Of a stretch of DNA of 64,000 nucleotides, positions 3,762 through 63,117 are shown one piece after another. Under the pieces are notes generated by a model. The model saw nothing but the letters and a program-made list of their open reading frames with translations, ran no database searches and was not told the origin of the DNA. This stretch comes from Escherichia virus TH22, in the sequence record MT446396.1; one strand, 5' to 3'. The stretch's first letter is position 1; every line of letters begins with the position of its first letter. A program made the position numbers and the translations under genes.

Positions 3762-4316
3762 ATGATTATTGAAAAATCTGGGTTGTTTGGTGACCTGACT
3801 GCCGATGTAATTGATAATGCAATCGTGCTTAAACAAGAAGATGATACAGTCGTTTTGACCATTCAAGATATTCAGAACCTGTACAAGTTGTCTGTTATTG
3901 ATGCAGAGCAGTATATTCGAACTCATAATCGTGTCTTTAAAATTAACGATGAAGTTGTGGCTTGGTTGTATCGAGGTGAAAATGGCTTTAATCTGGAAAC
4001 CGAATGGGCTTGTTTATCCATTAAAAACCGTTCAGAATTTTTAGAGAAAATTTTTAAACTGTTCCAAGAAGAGTGTGTACCTGAGCTCGAATGGAAAATC
4101 CATGGTTGTGATGCTATTATGCATTCAAGCGAAACCTTTGAAGGTGATGAAGAAGGTGATTATAATACTGAATTCAGTGTCCACCAACATCAAGGTCGCG
4201 ATATGTTATCTATCATCCAGACCCACGATGGTGAAGCTGAAGTAGTATTCACTAAAGACGAATTAAAAGTTCTGGTAAAATACCTGAACACTGTTATCCC
4301 AACTATGAACGCATAA
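3762..4316 (+). CDS. hypothetical strongly acidic protein
   Basis: 184 aa, rich in Asp/Glu. Confidence 0.4.
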   Translation: MIIEKSGLFGDLTADVIDNAIVLKQEDDTVVLTIQDIQNLYKLSVIDAEQYIRTHNRVFKINDEVVAWLYRGENGFNLETEWACLSIKNRSEFLEKIFKLFQEECVPELEWKIHGCDAIMHSSETFEGDEEGDYNTEFSVHQHQGRDMLSIIQTHDGEAEVVFTKDELKVLVKYLNTVIPTMNA

Positions 4317-4325
4317 GGAATTACA

Positions 4326-4778
4326 ATGATTATTAATGAAAACGCCTGGCACGTTAAATTACACGACCGTTTTTATGGCCATTATTCTCGCCCACACTCT
4401 TTGTGTGCTTACTTCTGGAAAATTGTATGGGTCTGCTTTATTTGTTCTGTGCTTGCAGGTAGTACAATCTTCGCCTTAACTGTTGCAGGTGCTGGTGTAT
4501 TGGAGCAGTTCTTTGTATTAAGTACTCCTGTTGGTTTAGGGTTAGGGTTTATTTTAGGACTAGCTACAATGGCTCTTATTTTGGCGGTAGCATTTGGTTT
4601 AATATATGGTCTAATGAATTTATGGGCCTGGTATGATTTACGTAAAGAAGAAAAAGAATGGGAACGAATTAAAGCCAAACGCGAAGGAAAGGAAATTAAA
4701 GAAAACGTTTTCATTCAATATATCAAAGCTCGTAAATCTAAGATGTGTCCGGTAATCCATTTTGAGGCGAAGAAATGA
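4326..4778 (+). CDS. hypothetical integral membrane protein
   Basis: 150 aa; 2-3 hydrophobic helices then charged KEEKEWERIKAKREGKE tail; stop overlaps next start (ATGA). Confidence 0.45.
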   Translation: MIINENAWHVKLHDRFYGHYSRPHSLCAYFWKIVWVCFICSVLAGSTIFALTVAGAGVLEQFFVLSTPVGLGLGFILGLATMALILAVAFGLIYGLMNLWAWYDLRKEEKEWERIKAKREGKEIKENVFIQYIKARKSKMCPVIHFEAKK

Positions 4779-26751: not shown

Positions 26752-27120
26752 ATGATTGAAATTACATTAAAGCAACCTGAAGACTTCCTGAAAGTTAAAG
26801 AAACTCTGACCCGTATGGGCATCGCAAATAATAAAGACCGTGTACTTTACCAGAGCTGTCACATCCTCCAAAAGCAAGGCCGTTACTATATTGTTCACTT
26901 CAAAGAAATGCTGCGCATGGATGGCCGCCAGGTGGATATTGATGGTGAAGACTATCAGCGCCGTGATTCCATCGCTCAACTGCTCGAAGACTGGGGCTTA
27001 ATCACTATCAAAGAAGAAGAGCATAATGAATTGTTTGCAGTAACAAACAACTTCCGTGTTATCTCCTTTAAACAAAAAGACGACTGGAAGCTCGTAGCCA
27101 AATACACAATTGGCAATTAA
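26752..27120 (+). CDS. regA: translational repressor RegA
   Basis: 122 aa; near-collinear with T4 RegA (MIEITLK...NNFRVISFKQK...KYTIGN). Confidence 0.9.
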   Translation: MIEITLKQPEDFLKVKETLTRMGIANNKDRVLYQSCHILQKQGRYYIVHFKEMLRMDGRQVDIDGEDYQRRDSIAQLLEDWGLITIKEEEHNELFAVTNNFRVISFKQKDDWKLVAKYTIGN

Positions 27121-27209: not shown

Positions 27210-29924
27210 ATGCAAGAATTTTATTTAACTATCGAACAAATCGGTGACAACCTACTCGAACGATACATTGACAAGAATGGTCATGAACGTGTTCGTGAAA
27301 TCCCCTATGCCCCGTGCCTGTTTATGCATGCCCGCGAAGACCAAGCTGCAAAATATACAGACATCTATAATAAAGGTTGCGTGAAAAAAGAATTCGATTC
27401 CATGCGTGATGCATCCCAGTGGATGAAGCGAATGAATGACATGGGTCTCGAAGCTATGGGTATGGATGACTTTAAACTCGCATACTTGTCCGACCGTTAC
27501 CCGCACGAAATCAAATACGATTCAAGTAAAATCCGTGTGGCTAACTTCGATATCGAGGTGACATCTCCTGATGGGTTCCCTGAGCCGTCTGAAGCACGTC
27601 ACCCTATTGATGCCCTGACGCACTATGATTCGATAGACGATAAATTCTATGTCTTTGACCTTTTGGGCTCACCATACGCCACTGTGGAGCAATGGTCTAT
27701 CGATATTGCTGCTAAGCTGCAAGAAGATGGCGGTGATGAAGTCCCTGAAGAAATCCTGGAAAAAATTGTTTATATGGCTTTCGATTCAGAAGAAGAAATG
27801 CTCCAACAGTATTTGGTATTCTGGAACGAGAAAACTCCGGTTATGTTAACTGGTTGGAACATCGAGAAGTTTGATATTCCATATATCTACAACCGCCTTA
27901 AAAATGTATTTGGTGAAGCTACGGCAAAACGTTTGAGTCCACATCGTCGTACAAAAGTTAAGGTCATTAACAACGGTTTCGGTGAAGAACAAGAAATCGT
28001 TCAGATTCTGGGTATCTCTGTTCTGGATTATCTGGACCTGTATAAAAAGTTCAGCTTCACAAACCAACCGTCTTATTCGTTGGATTATGTTGCGGAATCT
28101 GAGCTGGGTGTTGGTAAACTCCCGTATGATGGCCCGATTTCTAAACTGCGCGAATCAAATCACCAACGGTATATTTCTTATAACATCATCGATGTTTATC
28201 GTGTTGTACAGATTGACCGTAAGCGTCAGTTTATTAACCTTAGCCAGTCAATGGGTTATTATGCAAAAATGCAGATTCAGTCTGTATTCAGCCCAATCAA
28301 AACTTGGGATGCGATTATCTTTAACAGCCTGAAGACTCAAAATAAAGTCATTCCGGAAACCAAATCACATGTTCGTCAATCGTTCCCAGGTGCATTTGTT
28401 AAGGAACCGATTCCGAACGCATACAAATACGTTATGAGCTGTGACTTAACATCTCTGTATCCGAGCATCATCCGACAGATTAACATTAGTCCAGAAACGA
28501 TTGCCGGGTCATTTACACCAGCGCCAATGTACGAATACATCGCAGGAACTGCTGACCGTCCATCTGATACATTTAGTTGTGCTCCAAACGGTATGATGTA
28601 TTTTAAAGATGTTGCGGGTATTATTCCAACAGAAGTCACCAAGGTGTTTAATCAGCGTAAAGAGCACAAAGGTTATATGCTTGCGGCTCAACGTAATGGT
28701 GAACTGATTAAGGAAGCCCTGCGTAATCCAGGAACTGGTACAACCGAGCCTGAAGTTGATTATCGTTATGACTTTGATGATAATATGAAAACAACCTTGC
28801 ATGGTCTGAATCAAACAGTTCTGAATGGTATGTTGTACAAAGCGCAGATGGAAGAAGTTGCAGGCATGACCGCACAGATTAACCGTAAACTGCTTATCAA
28901 CAGTTGTTATGGCGCTCTGGGTAATATCTGGTTCCGTTACTTTGACCTGCGAAATGCAACCGCGATTACATCTTTCGGACAACTTACATTGCAGTGGATT
29001 GAGCGTAAAGTTAACGAATATTTTGATAGTGTTTGTGGTACAAGTGGTGAAACATATGTATTCTATGGCGATACTGACTCCATTTATATCCAGTGCGATA
29101 ACCTGATTAAAAAGGTTGGTGGCGAATCTAAATTCCGCGATACAAACCACCTGGTTGACTTCATGGACAAGTTTGCGAAAGACCGTCTGGAACCAGCAAT
29201 CGATAAAGCTTTCCGTGAGCTGGCTGAATACATGAACAACAAACAGCACCTTATGTTTATGGACCGTGAAGCGATTGCATGTCCTCCGTTGGGTTCTAAA
29301 GGTGTTGGTGGATTCTGGACGGCGAAGAAGCGTTATGCTCTGAACGTGTACGATATGGAAGGCACCCGATATGCTGTTCCGAAACTGAAAATCATGGGTC
29401 TGGAAACTCAAAAGTCGAGTACGCCAAAAGCATGTCAGAAAGCCCTGAAAGAATGTATCCGTCGCATGCTGCAAGAAGGTGAAGAATCTCTGCAGACATA
29501 CTTCAAGGAATTCAATAAGGAATTTAATGAGCTTAACTACATGACAATCGCAGGTGTATCATCGGTTAACAACATCCAGAAATATAATGAGGGTGGTTTC
29601 CCTGGATTTAAGTGTCCGGCTCATATCAAAGGCGTGCTCGCTTACATGCGTGCAACCAAAGGGTTGAAGACTGTTCCACAAATCATGGAAGGGGAAAAGG
29701 TGTATGTGCTTCCTCTTAAAGTTGGTAACCCGTTTGGCGAAACTGTGATTGCATGGCCATCAGGGATTGAACTCCCGATTGAAATTCGTGACCAGGTTCT
29801 GCAGTGGATGGACTACAACACACTGTTCCAGAAGACTTTTGTCAAACCGTTAACGGGGTTCTCTGAAGCAGCAAAGGTTGATTACGAAAAGAAAGCAACT
29901 CTTTTTGATATGTTTGACTTTTAA
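27210..29924 (+). CDS. 43: DNA polymerase gp43 (family B, 3'-5' exonuclease)
   Basis: 904 aa; exo motif FDIEV; polymerase motifs YPSII, YGDTDS. Confidence 0.95.
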   Translation: MQEFYLTIEQIGDNLLERYIDKNGHERVREIPYAPCLFMHAREDQAAKYTDIYNKGCVKKEFDSMRDASQWMKRMNDMGLEAMGMDDFKLAYLSDRYPHEIKYDSSKIRVANFDIEVTSPDGFPEPSEARHPIDALTHYDSIDDKFYVFDLLGSPYATVEQWSIDIAAKLQEDGGDEVPEEILEKIVYMAFDSEEEMLQQYLVFWNEKTPVMLTGWNIEKFDIPYIYNRLKNVFGEATAKRLSPHRRTKVKVINNGFGEEQEIVQILGISVLDYLDLYKKFSFTNQPSYSLDYVAESELGVGKLPYDGPISKLRESNHQRYISYNIIDVYRVVQIDRKRQFINLSQSMGYYAKMQIQSVFSPIKTWDAIIFNSLKTQNKVIPETKSHVRQSFPGAFVKEPIPNAYKYVMSCDLTSLYPSIIRQINISPETIAGSFTPAPMYEYIAGTADRPSDTFSCAPNGMMYFKDVAGIIPTEVTKVFNQRKEHKGYMLAAQRNGELIKEALRNPGTGTTEPEVDYRYDFDDNMKTTLHGLNQTVLNGMLYKAQMEEVAGMTAQINRKLLINSCYGALGNIWFRYFDLRNATAITSFGQLTLQWIERKVNEYFDSVCGTSGETYVFYGDTDSIYIQCDNLIKKVGGESKFRDTNHLVDFMDKFAKDRLEPAIDKAFRELAEYMNNKQHLMFMDREAIACPPLGSKGVGGFWTAKKRYALNVYDMEGTRYAVPKLKIMGLETQKSSTPKACQKALKECIRRMLQEGEESLQTYFKEFNKEFNELNYMTIAGVSSVNNIQKYNEGGFPGFKCPAHIKGVLAYMRATKGLKTVPQIMEGEKVYVLPLKVGNPFGETVIAWPSGIELPIEIRDQVLQWMDYNTLFQKTFVKPLTGFSEAAKVDYEKKATLFDMFDF

Positions 29925-29925
29925 G

Positions 29926-29996
29926 TGTTTACAACGGCAAAGGATTGCCGTATGATTACTCCATCAACTACTGATGATTAAATTAAGGATATTAAA
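29926..29996 (+). promoter_or_regulatory. early promoter with family-A leader
   Basis: GTTTACA, TATGATTACT, CCATCAACTACTGATGA. Confidence 0.5.
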
Positions 29997-30239
29997 ATGG
30001 AAACATTAATTGCAGGTACTGTTGTTCTTGGTGCTGGTTCTTTCTTCCTGGCTGCACTGGCATATTTTCTGCCGTGGATTATCGCGCTACTGCGAGGAAC
30101 CAAAAGTAATTGCGGAATCTTCTTTGTTAACCTCCTGTTAGGTTGGACAATGGTCGGGTGGTTTATTGCATTTATCTGGGCACTCGTTGCTGAACGTAAA
30201 TCAAACGCACAAGTAATTATCATCAAGGAAACCAAATGA
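29997..30239 (+). CDS. imm: superinfection immunity membrane protein (Imm-like)
   Basis: 80-aa two-helix membrane protein immediately downstream of gene 43, as T4 imm. Confidence 0.45.
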   Translation: METLIAGTVVLGAGSFFLAALAYFLPWIIALLRGTKSNCGIFFVNLLLGWTMVGWFIAFIWALVAERKSNAQVIIIKETK

Positions 30240-30379
30240 AGATGATTACAATTATTGTACTGATTGCATTTTTTGGTATGTCAATCTATTGGGCAATAAT
30301 GACTCCACATATGATTCCAACTTTAATTTTGGGTTGGGTATTTTTGGGGCTCCAAGCCCGCTATGAATGTTTTAATTGA
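30236..30379 (+). CDS. hypothetical small membrane protein
   Basis: 47 aa hydrophobic; ATGA overlap with imm; below track cutoff. Confidence 0.3.
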   Translation: MKMITIIVLIAFFGMSIYWAIMTPHMIPTLILGWVFLGLQARYECFN

Positions 30380-30389
30380 GGAAAATACA

Positions 30390-30893
30390 ATGAAAAAGTT
30401 AGCTATCGCAGCTGTTATACTGTTATCTGGTTGTGCTTACCAGGGTGATGTAGTTAATGCCAGTGAGATTGGTAAAGCGCGAATTGCTGCAGACCGTCAG
30501 GTGCATAATGGTTCCTTTGATTTCAAAGGTGGTACTGGACTTATCTACAAACGCGACAACAATCAATGTGGAAATAACTGCGCGAAATATGCTCAACAAG
30601 AAATTGAGTACAAACGCGAGCAAGCTGCGAAGCATGATGAAGTAATCGCTAAATTAGAAGCAGAAACTAAGCGACAAAATGACTTGGATACTGTTAACCA
30701 GATTTCACAGGTCTGTATGTCATACATCAATATGCAGATAAACATCATGCGCGCGGAAGCTTATCAGGCAGCAGAGGCTGGTTCTCCAAAAGCTAATGAG
30801 TATCGCGATATGTATCAGCGTTCTGCTCAAAACCGTCTGAGCTATATTAATAAATGTGTAGCTAAAGAGAAAGCACGCCAAGGTATTAACTAA
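30390..30893 (+). CDS. putative lipoprotein
   Basis: signal peptide with lipobox LLSGC; coiled-coil-like C-terminus; occupies the interval where T4 has 42/beta-gt. Confidence 0.5.
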   Translation: MKKLAIAAVILLSGCAYQGDVVNASEIGKARIAADRQVHNGSFDFKGGTGLIYKRDNNQCGNNCAKYAQQEIEYKREQAAKHDEVIAKLEAETKRQNDLDTVNQISQVCMSYINMQINIMRAEAYQAAEAGSPKANEYRDMYQRSAQNRLSYINKCVAKEKARQGIN

Positions 30894-30978
30894 CATTAAT
30901 TGCTCTAAAAATACAGTGATATAATTATCCTATCTTAAACCTGTGAGAAAAATATAATGGTGCCTATGGAAAAAATGA

Positions 30979-32157
30979 ATGTCTATTGCAGATTTGAAAT
31001 CCCGTTTGATTAAAGCTTCTACATCCAAAATGACTGCGACTCTTACTAAGTCCAAGTTTTTTAATGATAAAGATGTAGTTCGTACAAAAATCCCGATGCT
31101 GAACATTGCAATCAGCGGTGCACTAGATGGTGGTATGCAGTCAGGTTTGACTATTTTTGCTGGTCCGTCAAAACACTTTAAATCCAATATGGGTTTAACG
31201 ATGGTCTCTGCATATATGAACAAATACCCCGATGCAATCTGTTTGTTCTATGATTCAGAATTTGGTATCACAGAAGCATATCTTCGTGCAATGAAAGTTG
31301 ACCCGGAACGTGTTATTCACACACCAATCCAGTCGGTTGAACAATTGAAAGTTGATATGGTTAACCAGCTTGAAGCAATTGAGCGTGGTGAAAAAGTCAT
31401 TATCTTTATTGACTCAATCGGTAACATGGCGTCTAAAAAAGAAACAGAAGATGCGATGAACGAAAAAGTCGTTGGCGATATGACTCGCGCTAAATCCCTG
31501 AAATCTCTATTCCGTATTGTTACCCCATATTTTAGTATCAAGGATATCCCTTGTGTCGCGGTTAACCATACAATTGAGACGATTGAGATGTACAGCAAAA
31601 CCGTTATGACCGGTGGTACAGGTGTTATGTATTCTGCAGACACCGTATTCATTATCGGTAAACGTCAGATTAAAGAAACTGGTAAAGAACTTGAAGGTTT
31701 CCAATTTGTTCTGAACGCCGAAAAATCTCGTATGGTCAAAGAGAAAAGTAAATTCTTCATTGATGTAAAATTCGATGGGGGTATTGACCCGTATTCTGGC
31801 CTGCTTGATATGGCAATGGAAATTGGATTTGTGGTGAAACCGAAAGTTGGTTGGTATAACCGTGAATATCTTGATGTTGAGACCGGTGAAATGGTCCGCG
31901 AAGAAAAATCATGGCGTGCAAAAGATACTAACTGTACCGAATTCTGGGGTCCATTGTTCAAGCACGAACCTTTCCGTGATGCAATCAAACGACATTACCA
32001 GCTGGGTGCAATCGATAGCAATGCTGTTGTTGACGCCGAAGTTGATGCGCTTATTGCCTCCAAGGTTGAAAAATACTCTGCCCCTGAAGGTAAGGCAAAA
32101 CCATCTGCGGCAGATATCGAAAACGATTTAGATATGATGGAAGACCTTGATGAATGA
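30979..32157 (+). CDS. uvsX: recombinase UvsX (RecA-like)
   Basis: 392 aa; Walker A GPSKHFKS; collinear with T4 UvsX. Confidence 0.95.
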   Translation: MSIADLKSRLIKASTSKMTATLTKSKFFNDKDVVRTKIPMLNIAISGALDGGMQSGLTIFAGPSKHFKSNMGLTMVSAYMNKYPDAICLFYDSEFGITEAYLRAMKVDPERVIHTPIQSVEQLKVDMVNQLEAIERGEKVIIFIDSIGNMASKKETEDAMNEKVVGDMTRAKSLKSLFRIVTPYFSIKDIPCVAVNHTIETIEMYSKTVMTGGTGVMYSADTVFIIGKRQIKETGKELEGFQFVLNAEKSRMVKEKSKFFIDVKFDGGIDPYSGLLDMAMEIGFVVKPKVGWYNREYLDVETGEMVREEKSWRAKDTNCTEFWGPLFKHEPFRDAIKRHYQLGAIDSNAVVDAEVDALIASKVEKYSAPEGKAKPSAADIENDLDMMEDLDE

Positions 32158-34805: not shown

Positions 34806-35099
34806 ATGAAAAAGTTATTAATCGCGGCAATTCTTACCGTAGCATCATGTGGTACAGCTCCAGTTACTGCTGGACTTGATAAAAACCTTTGTGAGTGGTC
34901 TATGACTGCGGACCAAACTGATGTTGAAACTCAAATTCGCGCTGACATCATGAATATTACTAAACGTGACCGCCCTGATATGGTTAAAGAAGTATCTGAC
35001 CAATTGACTTCTGGTGACGTTATGCAGTATAACTATGTTCTGTATTGCGATGCTTCATTTGACAATAGCAAAATTGTTCAATGGGTTACAGGTGAATAA
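34806..35099 (+). CDS. sp: Spackle-like periplasmic superinfection-exclusion protein
   Basis: 97 aa, signal peptide (LTVASCG); size and position (61.3 slot between 41 and 61) match T4 Sp. Confidence 0.5.
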   Translation: MKKLLIAAILTVASCGTAPVTAGLDKNLCEWSMTADQTDVETQIRADIMNITKRDRPDMVKEVSDQLTSGDVMQYNYVLYCDASFDNSKIVQWVTGE

Positions 35100-62191: not shown

Positions 62192-62467
62192 ATGACTAAA
62201 TTTGAAATCGTTTCTGAAATTGTTACTGTAACTTCAATTTTGATTAAAACCGACCGGGAAGATATTACGATGAAGCGTGATGTGTTTATCGCGTTTTTGA
62301 ATGAGTTGGGATTGAGGAATGAGAATGGTAATGAGTTAAACAATGTATCGTTTAACAAGTTGTTTAAAAGTTTATCTGAAGATGAAATTGAACAAATCAT
62401 TGAACAATTTAACGAAGGATTCGAAGATATACACCGTTATCTTATGATGTATACCTCCGGATTCTAA
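62192..62467 (+). CDS. asiA: anti-sigma70 factor AsiA
   Basis: 91 aa; EIVTVTSILIK..REDI...FIAFLNE.G...FNEGFE..HRYL.MYT matches T4 AsiA; convergent with t. Confidence 0.75.
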   Translation: MTKFEIVSEIVTVTSILIKTDREDITMKRDVFIAFLNELGLRNENGNELNNVSFNKLFKSLSEDEIEQIIEQFNEGFEDIHRYLMMYTSGF

Positions 62468-63117
62468 CGTGTACGCCCAAGCGTACGACCTGCTTGTCCA
62501 CACATAGCAGAAAGCCTATCAAAACCAAGGATAGGTTTTTGCTTATACCAGTACAGCGAGACTGTACCTGCATAAACGTTTTCCAAATTAAAGAATGGGC
62601 AGCTGAACATATATGAGAAGCTGCTTTTTTTCTTTGTTGGTAAGAATACAGATTCCGTACTGGATTCAAAATAATTACCATTAACCCCCGCCAAATATTC
62701 TGCTGAAGTTTTATCTATTGGAAACCCACCCAAATTTTTTTCGTCGACTGTATCAGGCAATATCCCCTCATATCCCACCATATCCACAAAGTAGTTAAGG
62801 TTAGTTGGTCTAAAAGAATATATTGCTGTAAAGTCTGCTCCACTTGACGAGTGGACTATCTGGATTTGCTCGATAGCTGCAATTTTAAATCTGTTATCCT
62901 GGTCTTGCCTTATCATTTCTGTGTACGAGGCATATGAAGCATCCCTGTACGCATCTAAAATTGCATCACCTTTATACCAGATTACCACCATTAAAAATAA
63001 TAGAACAATAACTAGTACCCGGGAAAAAACAACTTTCCCGGTCGCATTATCTTTAAAAATTCTATCAAGAAGTCCAAAAAGTAGATCGGGTATTGATATT
63101 CCTACTTTTGGTTCCAT
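62464..63117 (-). CDS. t: holin T
   Basis: 217 aa; single N-terminal TM; near-collinear with T4 T (DLLFGLLDRIFKDNATGKV..., YSFRP.NLNYFVD, YMFSCP.FNL.N.YAGT). Confidence 0.9.
   Translation of the reverse strand: MEPKVGISIPDLLFGLLDRIFKDNATGKVVFSRVLVIVLLFLMVVIWYKGDAILDAYRDASYASYTEMIRQDQDNRFKIAAIEQIQIVHSSSGADFTAIYSFRPTNLNYFVDMVGYEGILPDTVDEKNLGGFPIDKTSAEYLAGVNGNYFESSTESVFLPTKKKSSFSYMFSCPFFNLENVYAGTVSLYWYKQKPILGFDRLSAMCGQAGRTLGRTR

Follow-up and report, generated by a model that had tools for sequence, protein, structure and literature searches.

A phrog_1754 lipoprotein encoded close to imm in Escherichia virus TH22: a candidate superinfection-exclusion factor

The gene, its neighbors and its promoters

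The window analyzed here was a 64,000-nucleotide stretch of Escherichia virus TH22 (MT446396.1), and the gene under study lies on its plus strand at 30390-30893. The sequence-only reading had described a protein of 168 aa. The open reading frame (ORF), taken from the ORF list, was real, and it encodes 167 aa, codon 168 being the stop. The product is a member of the protein family phrog_1754. A Shine-Dalgarno sequence, GAGGA (30378-30382, plus strand), was read 7 nt upstream of the ATG at 30390. An alternative start at ATG 30363 is unlikely because of this position of the GAGGA and because the homologues all start at MK(K).

All the genes of the region lie on the plus strand. Upstream are regA (26752-27120), the DNA polymerase gene 43 (27210-29924) and imm (29997-30239), which encodes a superinfection immunity membrane protein of 80 aa (PF14373, 1e-17; phrog_1039, 1.8e-30). 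Downstream are uvsX (30979-32157) and then genes 40 and 41. The lipoprotein gene had been placed directly downstream of imm, but a small hydrophobic 47-aa ORF (30236-30379; 42.1 or Phage_T4_Y02C; phrog_3610, 9.6e-27) intervenes. This ORF is named 42.1 in the VR7 annotation, and PF26865 was recorded on its identical-length neighbors in the comparison loci L012 and L013. The start of 42.1 overlaps the stop of imm in the sequence ATGA, and the GAGGA of the lipoprotein gene overlaps the stop of 42.1. This suggested that imm, 42.1 and the lipoprotein gene are translationally coupled.

Both classical T4 exclusion genes were present in the window. Besides imm, it encodes Spackle (sp; 34806-35099, plus strand), a known periplasmic exclusion protein (phrog_1586, 6.4e-43; PF25676 on the homologues in loci L010-L012). 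The lipoprotein had been put forward as a second exclusion factor; because of Spackle, it would be the third.

The segment 29900-31000 was 100% identical in Escherichia phages UPEC07 and TH55, as was the lipoprotein gene itself, and 92-98% identical in VR7, SP18 and other members of Gaprivervirus (Straboviridae, Tevenvirinae). No compositional anomaly was found over the imm-lipoprotein cassette, and no tRNA genes were found in the 64-kb window. At its far end the window reaches the holin gene t (62464-63117, minus strand) and the gp38 adhesin gene (from 63153, minus strand); it thus extends from the early genes of the nrdC region across the replication genes as far as the border of the tail-fiber module. 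In UPEC07, gp38 is an adhesin-type protein of 265 aa.

The interval from imm to uvsX (30239-30979) contained neither gene 42 nor genes for glycosyl or arabinosyl modification, which Dhakavirus, Karamvirus and Kanagawavirus carry there. A tblastn search of the 64-kb window found no homologues of gene 42, TAGT, NTP-transferases or glycosyltransferases. An indel hot spot separates the lipoprotein gene from uvsX: this spacer has 85 nt in the window (30894-30978) and about 190-240 nt, sometimes with a 35-aa ORF, in VR7, VR25, RZ, TH40 and MN01 (compared in loci L002 3998-4238, L009 5005-5195 and L010 5504-5611).

A consensus scan detected a sigma-70 promoter of the T4 early type, TTTACA-17-TATGAT (29928-29956, plus strand; 10/12 match), directly 3' of the gene 43 stop. 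No other promoter-like site was detected upstream of the lipoprotein gene. The preceding G gives GTTTACA, and GTTTAC at -35 is the signature of T4 early promoters. The arrangement GTTTACA-N17-TATxAT followed gene 43 in six genera, both where imm came first and where the lipoprotein gene did. The late promoter motif TATAAATA was not found within 5 kb of the lipoprotein gene, and the terminator scan predicted no terminator between this gene and uvsX. With an early-type promoter, no late motif and no terminator, early expression together with imm is a well-founded prediction, and the lipoprotein gene would be co-transcribed with imm.

Just past the lipoprotein stop is a MotA-box-like sequence, TTGCTCTA, followed after 12 nt by TATAAT (30900-30925, plus strand; read from the sequence). 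By comparison with the T4 middle-promoter consensus, it is likely to be a middle promoter for uvsX.

Two hairpins were observed upstream of the lipoprotein gene. One, with a 7-bp stem and an (A/T)GGA loop, lies inside the 17-nt promoter spacer (about 29935-29952, within 29925-29996). Its stem covaries from genus to genus, being ACGGCAA/TTGCCGT in TH22, TACCACA/TGTGGTA in PG7 and CHI14, and TATCACA/TGTGATA in PM2, and the hairpin was seen also in loci L002, L003, L005, L007, L008, L009 and L014. It may belong to the gene 43 mRNA as a 3' hairpin that overlaps the promoter. The other is a terminator-like hairpin with a T-run (30316-30338) within the 47-aa ORF. As one such site was found and 0.9 were expected by chance, it probably has no meaning.

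Distribution of the family and its lipoprotein signal

The protein matched phrog_1754 (function unknown) over its full length (E=9.1e-46; residues 1-161 against positions 2-147 of the 148 in the profile). By tblastn, the family was detected in 124 of 50,697 phage records, and it was not found in T4-type or RB69-type phages. The records examined belonged to Gaprivervirus, Dhakavirus (orf43 of JS98), Karamvirus, Kanagawavirus, Winklervirus and Mosugukvirus, and the phages carrying the family infect Escherichia, Enterobacter, Serratia, Edwardsiella, Pectobacterium and Erwinia. When 1.84 billion representative proteins were searched exhaustively with HMMER, there were 29 matches, 28 of them true clusters and one spurious. 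A degenerate motif scan of IMG/VR gave eight matches, each on a contig of 148-178 kb.

Neither the motif scan nor a single-protein scan found a match in 185,579 species-representative bacterial and archaeal genomes (GTDB), and no family members were found in complete E. coli genomes or in plasmids. The family is essentially phage-only. Pfam, NCBIfam and PADLOC returned nothing significant for the lipoprotein, the matches to FerB and DUF553 being below the cut-offs. Searches of PDB sequences with the single sequence and with the profile gave no match, and a search of the accessible literature library found no publication on the phrog_1754 family.

In every phage context examined, the gene was located just downstream of gene 43, ahead of genus-specific DNA-modification genes. 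Of all the genomic contexts examined, the only one other than a T4-like phage of Enterobacterales was a copy in Enterobacter kobei. In Gaprivervirus, Dhakavirus, Karamvirus and one metagenomic lineage, gene 43 was followed by imm, or an ORF in the imm position, and the lipoprotein gene, usually with 42.1 in between. In one metagenomic phage the order was reversed, the lipoprotein gene preceding imm. In Kanagawavirus, Winklervirus and Mosugukvirus, the lipoprotein gene came directly after gene 43 with no adjacent imm. Imm was found in 1248 phage records, compared with 124 for the lipoprotein family. From these numbers and the three genera without an adjacent imm, linkage to imm was frequent but not obligatory.

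The gene had also been said to occupy the slot that T4 uses for gene 42 and beta-gt. This was loosely right as to position. In Karamvirus PG7, however, the homologue lies between the ORF in the imm position and gene 42 and coexists with both gene 42 and beta-gt, so that replacement of these genes does not apply. In another Karamvirus homologue (P0022; L022, 192-692), the gene caller had added 17 upstream codons (MLTTRMWYSKVTFNEEIN-MKRL...). Its true start is the MKRL methionine, the start seen in all the relatives.

The N-terminus of the TH22 protein, MKKLAIAAVILLSG followed by C (30390-30434, plus strand; Cys15 codon 30432-30434), passed a rule of the PROSITE PS51257 type. This rule calls for an N-terminal K/R, a hydrophobic h-region and a lipobox [LVI][ASTVI][GAS]C with the Cys within residues 15-35; here the lipobox is LSGC. 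The earlier description of a classical lipobox (LLSGC) was borne out for TH22, and all 35 family sequences scanned, ranging from 16% to 96% identity, passed the same rule. A distant member, P0044, has a signal of the SPase I type and is missing the lipobox Cys.

Cys15 would carry the lipid and form the N-terminus of the mature protein. The +2 position is Ala in the TH22 protein and A, Q or V in the homologues; Asp was never seen there among the 35 scanned. In Enterobacterales, the absence of Asp at +2 predicts Lol-dependent transfer to the outer membrane. From the Ala at +2 we infer that the lipoprotein is sorted, via Lol, to the outer membrane. The mature family proteins carry either two or four Cys (35 scanned), and these even numbers are as expected for an oxidizing compartment. 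On these sequence features, the ORF is confidently predicted to be a genuine exported lipoprotein of the phage.

Predicted structure, alleles and the Enterobacter kobei copy

The mature TH22 protein is 152 aa long, with 13% Ala, 9% Gln and 9% Asn. It is mostly helical by prediction, which agrees with the earlier view of an alpha-helical, Gln/Ala-rich body, Asn being as frequent as Gln. The AlphaFold2 (AF2) model, built from a 45-sequence alignment, had a mean pLDDT of 81.9, with values of 92-98 over residues ~80-160. In the model, Cys15 is followed by a flexible linker, and a short helix (residues 24-38) is missing in some of the subfamilies.

Next is a conserved beta-hairpin at residues 41-55 (FKGGTGLIYKR; 30510-30554, plus strand), which is seen in the alignments; both AF2 models place its strands at 41-46 and 50-55. 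Apart from the cysteines, G48 (kept in at least 90% of the family) and Y53 (invariant) rank among the best conserved residues of the alignments. The motif C60-x3-C64 (NQCGNNC; 30567-30581, plus strand) starts the long helix. In the larger subfamily it is invariant, in the form NQCGxNC, and the Karamvirus subfamily has lost it together with residues ~29-41. The helical body (30573-30881, plus strand) consists of a 68-residue helix (62-129) and two helices (135-147 and 149-164) that pack back on it as a small bundle. C109 (30714-30716) and C156 (30855-30857) were invariant in 45 of 45 sequences, and we infer a disulfide between them. The C-terminus is polar and helical, and it is not conserved as an Lpp-like Lys. 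No relatives of the fold were found for the AF2 model among the solved structures of the PDB or the viral structures of BFVD.

The hairpin residues K46-x-G48-x-x-L51-x-Y53 fit the beta-signal of outer-membrane proteins (polar-x-G-x-x-hydrophobic-x-aromatic). Being short, this pattern is expected by chance in about one in 10 proteins of such size. Docking of the hairpin on the BAM complex may be considered as a weak lead.

Alleles were compared among seven Gaprivervirus genomes or contigs, in which the polymerase, UvsX, gp40 and gp41 were 97-100% identical and the dS of uvsX was 0.05-0.22. Identity among the lipoproteins was 68-99%, dS reached 1-2.9, and dN/dS was 0.02-0.3. In some pairs the N-terminal half of the gene was nearly identical and the C-terminal half was saturated, which places recombination breakpoints inside the gene. 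With dN/dS well below 1, there was no signal of positive selection, and the pattern is that of old alleles being exchanged. The lipoprotein alleles are thus old, mosaic and shuffled under purifying selection.

Imm (64-100% identical) and Spackle (75-99%) were likewise mosaic in the same comparison. The three genes reassort independently: between the window and locus L012, imm was 98.8% identical, sp 99.0% and the lipoprotein 73.7%. In a comparison of 98 genes between VR25 and the window, the median identity was 95.3%, 21 shared genes were below 85%, and seven genes were absent. The lipoprotein, at 76.6%, ranked about 19th among the 98 in divergence. The mosaicism is therefore suggestive but not specific to exclusion genes.

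The Enterobacter kobei copy (P0021), which is of the Karamvirus type, lies in a chromosome contig (GCA_032579055.1, ABNQQD010000001.1, 238301-246750; locus L020, gene at 4001-4450). Its surroundings form a low-GC island (0.33-0.44; the flanking amidase gene has 0.58) in which there are also genes for a large serine integrase, a DNA methyltransferase and an invertase, and one that is HTH repressor-like. The phage-like patch covers only 595 bp of the island and was 87.8% identical to a Karamvirus-like contig. It takes in 34 nt upstream (100% identical), with the ribosome-binding site region of the lipoprotein gene, then that gene in full length (85%), and finally the initial 111 nt of gene 42 (97%). 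The resulting 37-codon stump of gene 42 is fused into a 71-aa ORF.

Such an island, with an integrase and a repressor, is where conversion and exclusion genes are usually found. An element that holds this gene alone is as expected of a stand-alone protective gene, and we take it as a lead and not as evidence of selection. The intact ORF need not reflect selection, because this is a single recent capture, with flanks 97-100% identical to phage DNA. The match lies on a 346-kb contig, and a concatemeric phage assembly was ruled out by the gene neighborhood and the GC content. A 213-aa neighbor in the island was considered as DUF1311/LprI-like, which Pfam did not support.

Comparison with known systems and candidate functions

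The textbook picture of superinfection exclusion in T-even phages rests on two proteins, Imm and Spackle. T4 Spackle (Sp, gp61.3) is a periplasmic inhibitor of the gp5 tail lysozyme. Like it, the TH22 lipoprotein is helical, has a conserved Cys pair and mosaic alleles, and is predicted to be early and exported; the signal peptide of the TH22 Spackle is almost identical to its own. It differs from Spackle in being about twice as large and in having an added beta-hairpin/CxxxC module. In hhalign, the two proteins aligned over the 17-residue signal peptide only (probability 33%). The C-terminal bundle, with its similarly spaced Cys pair, had been a candidate for a Spackle-like domain; this was ruled out by hhalign, and Spackle was missing among the fold matches.

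With T4 Imm (PF14373), the lipoprotein shares allele mosaicism and, as predicted, the operon and promoter. Imm, on the other hand, is a small integral inner-membrane protein, unrelated in sequence and about 10 times more widespread. Searches by sequence, profile and fold found no similarity of the lipoprotein to any known exclusion protein.

The lipoprotein had been likened to Llp and Cor, which were said to block receptors or injection. The Cor lipoproteins of T1, phi80, N15 and HK022 and the Llp of T5 are, like the TH22 protein, phage-encoded, with an outer-membrane-type sorting signal and conserved Cys; they are made during infection in the host cell and face the periplasm, as is predicted for TH22. 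Llp and Cor have been described as small lipoproteins (PMC9586334). The TH22 protein, by contrast, is helical and has a mature length of 152 aa, and its gene is in the replication module between the DNA polymerase gene and uvsX. The Cor family (phrog_1119) matched it with E=0.014 over residues 1-17 only, which is the signal peptide, and no relation of the mature protein to Cor or Llp was found by PDB sequence search or by PDB/BFVD fold search.

The gp38 adhesins were used for a further comparison. In DK-13, TH15, VR26 and P479, the lipoprotein was about 97% identical to that of the window, and gp38 was only 79-89% identical or alignable over no more than the first two thirds. In the Dhakaviruses QL01, KIT01, WG01 and FB, gp38 was 95-96% identical and the lipoprotein 48-49%. 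The lipoprotein allele is thus uncoupled from the gp38 adhesin in both directions. This argues against a receptor-specific mechanism of the Llp/Cor type, since the allele does not track gp38; llp, by contrast, adjoins pb5, the gene for the receptor-binding protein, in T5 (PMC9586334). A target common to many Enterobacterales, or to incoming virions of the T-even type, fits these data better. The likeness to Llp and Cor thus failed on homology, size, gene linkage and co-variation.

Several explanations of the gene were weighed. Masking of the Llp/Cor type, in which the lipoprotein would bind the periplasmic face of an outer-membrane receptor, lock it, block adsorption and spare the progeny from debris, is very unlikely. 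The outer-membrane type of lipoprotein, the conserved Cys pairs and the probably early expression are consistent with it, and so is the precedent of Llp, a small lipoprotein that acts on its receptor FhuA from the periplasmic side (PMC9586334). Against it stand the uncoupling from gp38 in both directions, the position in the replication module and not beside an adhesin gene as for llp, the restriction of the Cor likeness to the signal peptide, and an N-terminal core conserved across phages of six host genera from Escherichia to Erwinia. The same conserved core suggests a conserved envelope target, and this is in line with a role in the infection cycle of the phage itself: bracing of the outer membrane and peptidoglycan against premature lysis or lysis from without, lysis inhibition or timing, or a periplasmic spacer. 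A lipid-anchored helical stalk, with a 68-residue helix of about 10 nm, and predicted expression with other membrane proteins also accord with such a role. We nevertheless regard it as doubtful. The protein matched no spanin, holin or antiholin family, no late promoter is nearby, and conservation of an Lpp-like Lys at the C-terminus was not seen. The gene is also missing in T4, T2 and RB-type phages, in which lysis and lysis inhibition are normal. The outer-membrane spanin subunits (T4 PseT.3, lambda Rz1) and the unimolecular spanins are, as is predicted for TH22, phage outer-membrane lipoproteins that reach into the periplasm. Unlike them, the TH22 protein has an early-type promoter, a helical globular end and no adjacent or embedded i-spanin partner; neither a late promoter, nor a C-terminal transmembrane segment, nor a match to a spanin PHROG was found.

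The lipoprotein might instead serve in counter-defense or competition, by neutralizing a host factor of the periplasm or outer membrane (a nuclease, a protease or a prophage-encoded exclusion lipoprotein) or an incoming toxin (a colicin or a T6SS effector) that would otherwise abort infection. The predicted periplasmic location and early timing and the mosaic behavior of an accessory gene agree with this, as does a weak match to NF045617, 'putative T6SS immunity periplasmic lipoprotein'. This match, however, is limited to residues 4-35, in essence the signal peptide, and reaches 16 bits where the cut-off is 43, and on these grounds identity as a T6SS-immunity protein was rejected. PADLOC and the anti-defense families gave no match, no result points to a specific target, and we consider the explanation distinctly unlikely. 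That this is no functional lipoprotein at all, but a cytoplasmic or decaying ORF with a lipobox by chance, is hardly credible: the lipobox is kept in all but one of the family members over 16-96% identity, dN/dS is 0.02-0.3, a Shine-Dalgarno sequence is present, the Cys counts are even, and the AF2 fold is confident.

Tentatively, we favor as the most likely role that of an accessory factor: after adsorption, it would condition the infected cell's envelope against later phages or the damage they cause. The early-type promoter, the predicted periplasmic location, old mosaic alleles like those of imm and sp, and the capture in the E. kobei island were counted for an exclusion or envelope role. 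Against exclusion were counted the fact that the phage already has Imm and Sp, the absence of the lipoprotein from most Imm-bearing phages, and the P0044 homologue without a lipid anchor. T4 manages with Imm and Sp alone. An exclusion role would be no surprise; for an ORF of unknown function it is a reasonable hypothesis.

In the mechanism that we propose for this accessory factor, the lipoprotein would be made early and tethered to the envelope, presumably at the outer membrane, with a flexible linker holding its periplasmic elements. These elements would be the beta-hairpin and CxxxC module, the long helical stalk and a helical bundle stabilized by the predicted disulfide. It would act after adsorption, alongside Imm in the inner membrane and Spackle in the periplasm, and would not mask a particular receptor. 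In a more specific form, the lipoprotein would be a third, structurally new and receptor-independent periplasmic exclusion factor of T-even-type phages. Its hairpin/CxxxC region would hold on to a conserved machine of the envelope or to the tail tip of the incoming phage, and specificity would come from the variable bundle. In this detail the proposal is speculative and more likely wrong than right.

The lipoprotein is conserved and phage-specific, and in several genera its gene is predicted to share a transcript with imm; this makes it a well-defined candidate for an envelope component that has been missing from the picture. It would be relevant to phage cocktails with Dhakavirus, Gaprivervirus and Karamvirus phages. 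If it is not an exclusion factor, it would still be a phage protein of the early period, directed at something conserved in the enterobacterial envelope.

The signal peptide of the TH22 Spackle was also inspected. It reads MKKLLIAAILTVASC followed by G, and its V-A-S-C fits a loose lipobox. This suggested that the Spackle of this lineage might itself be lipidated.
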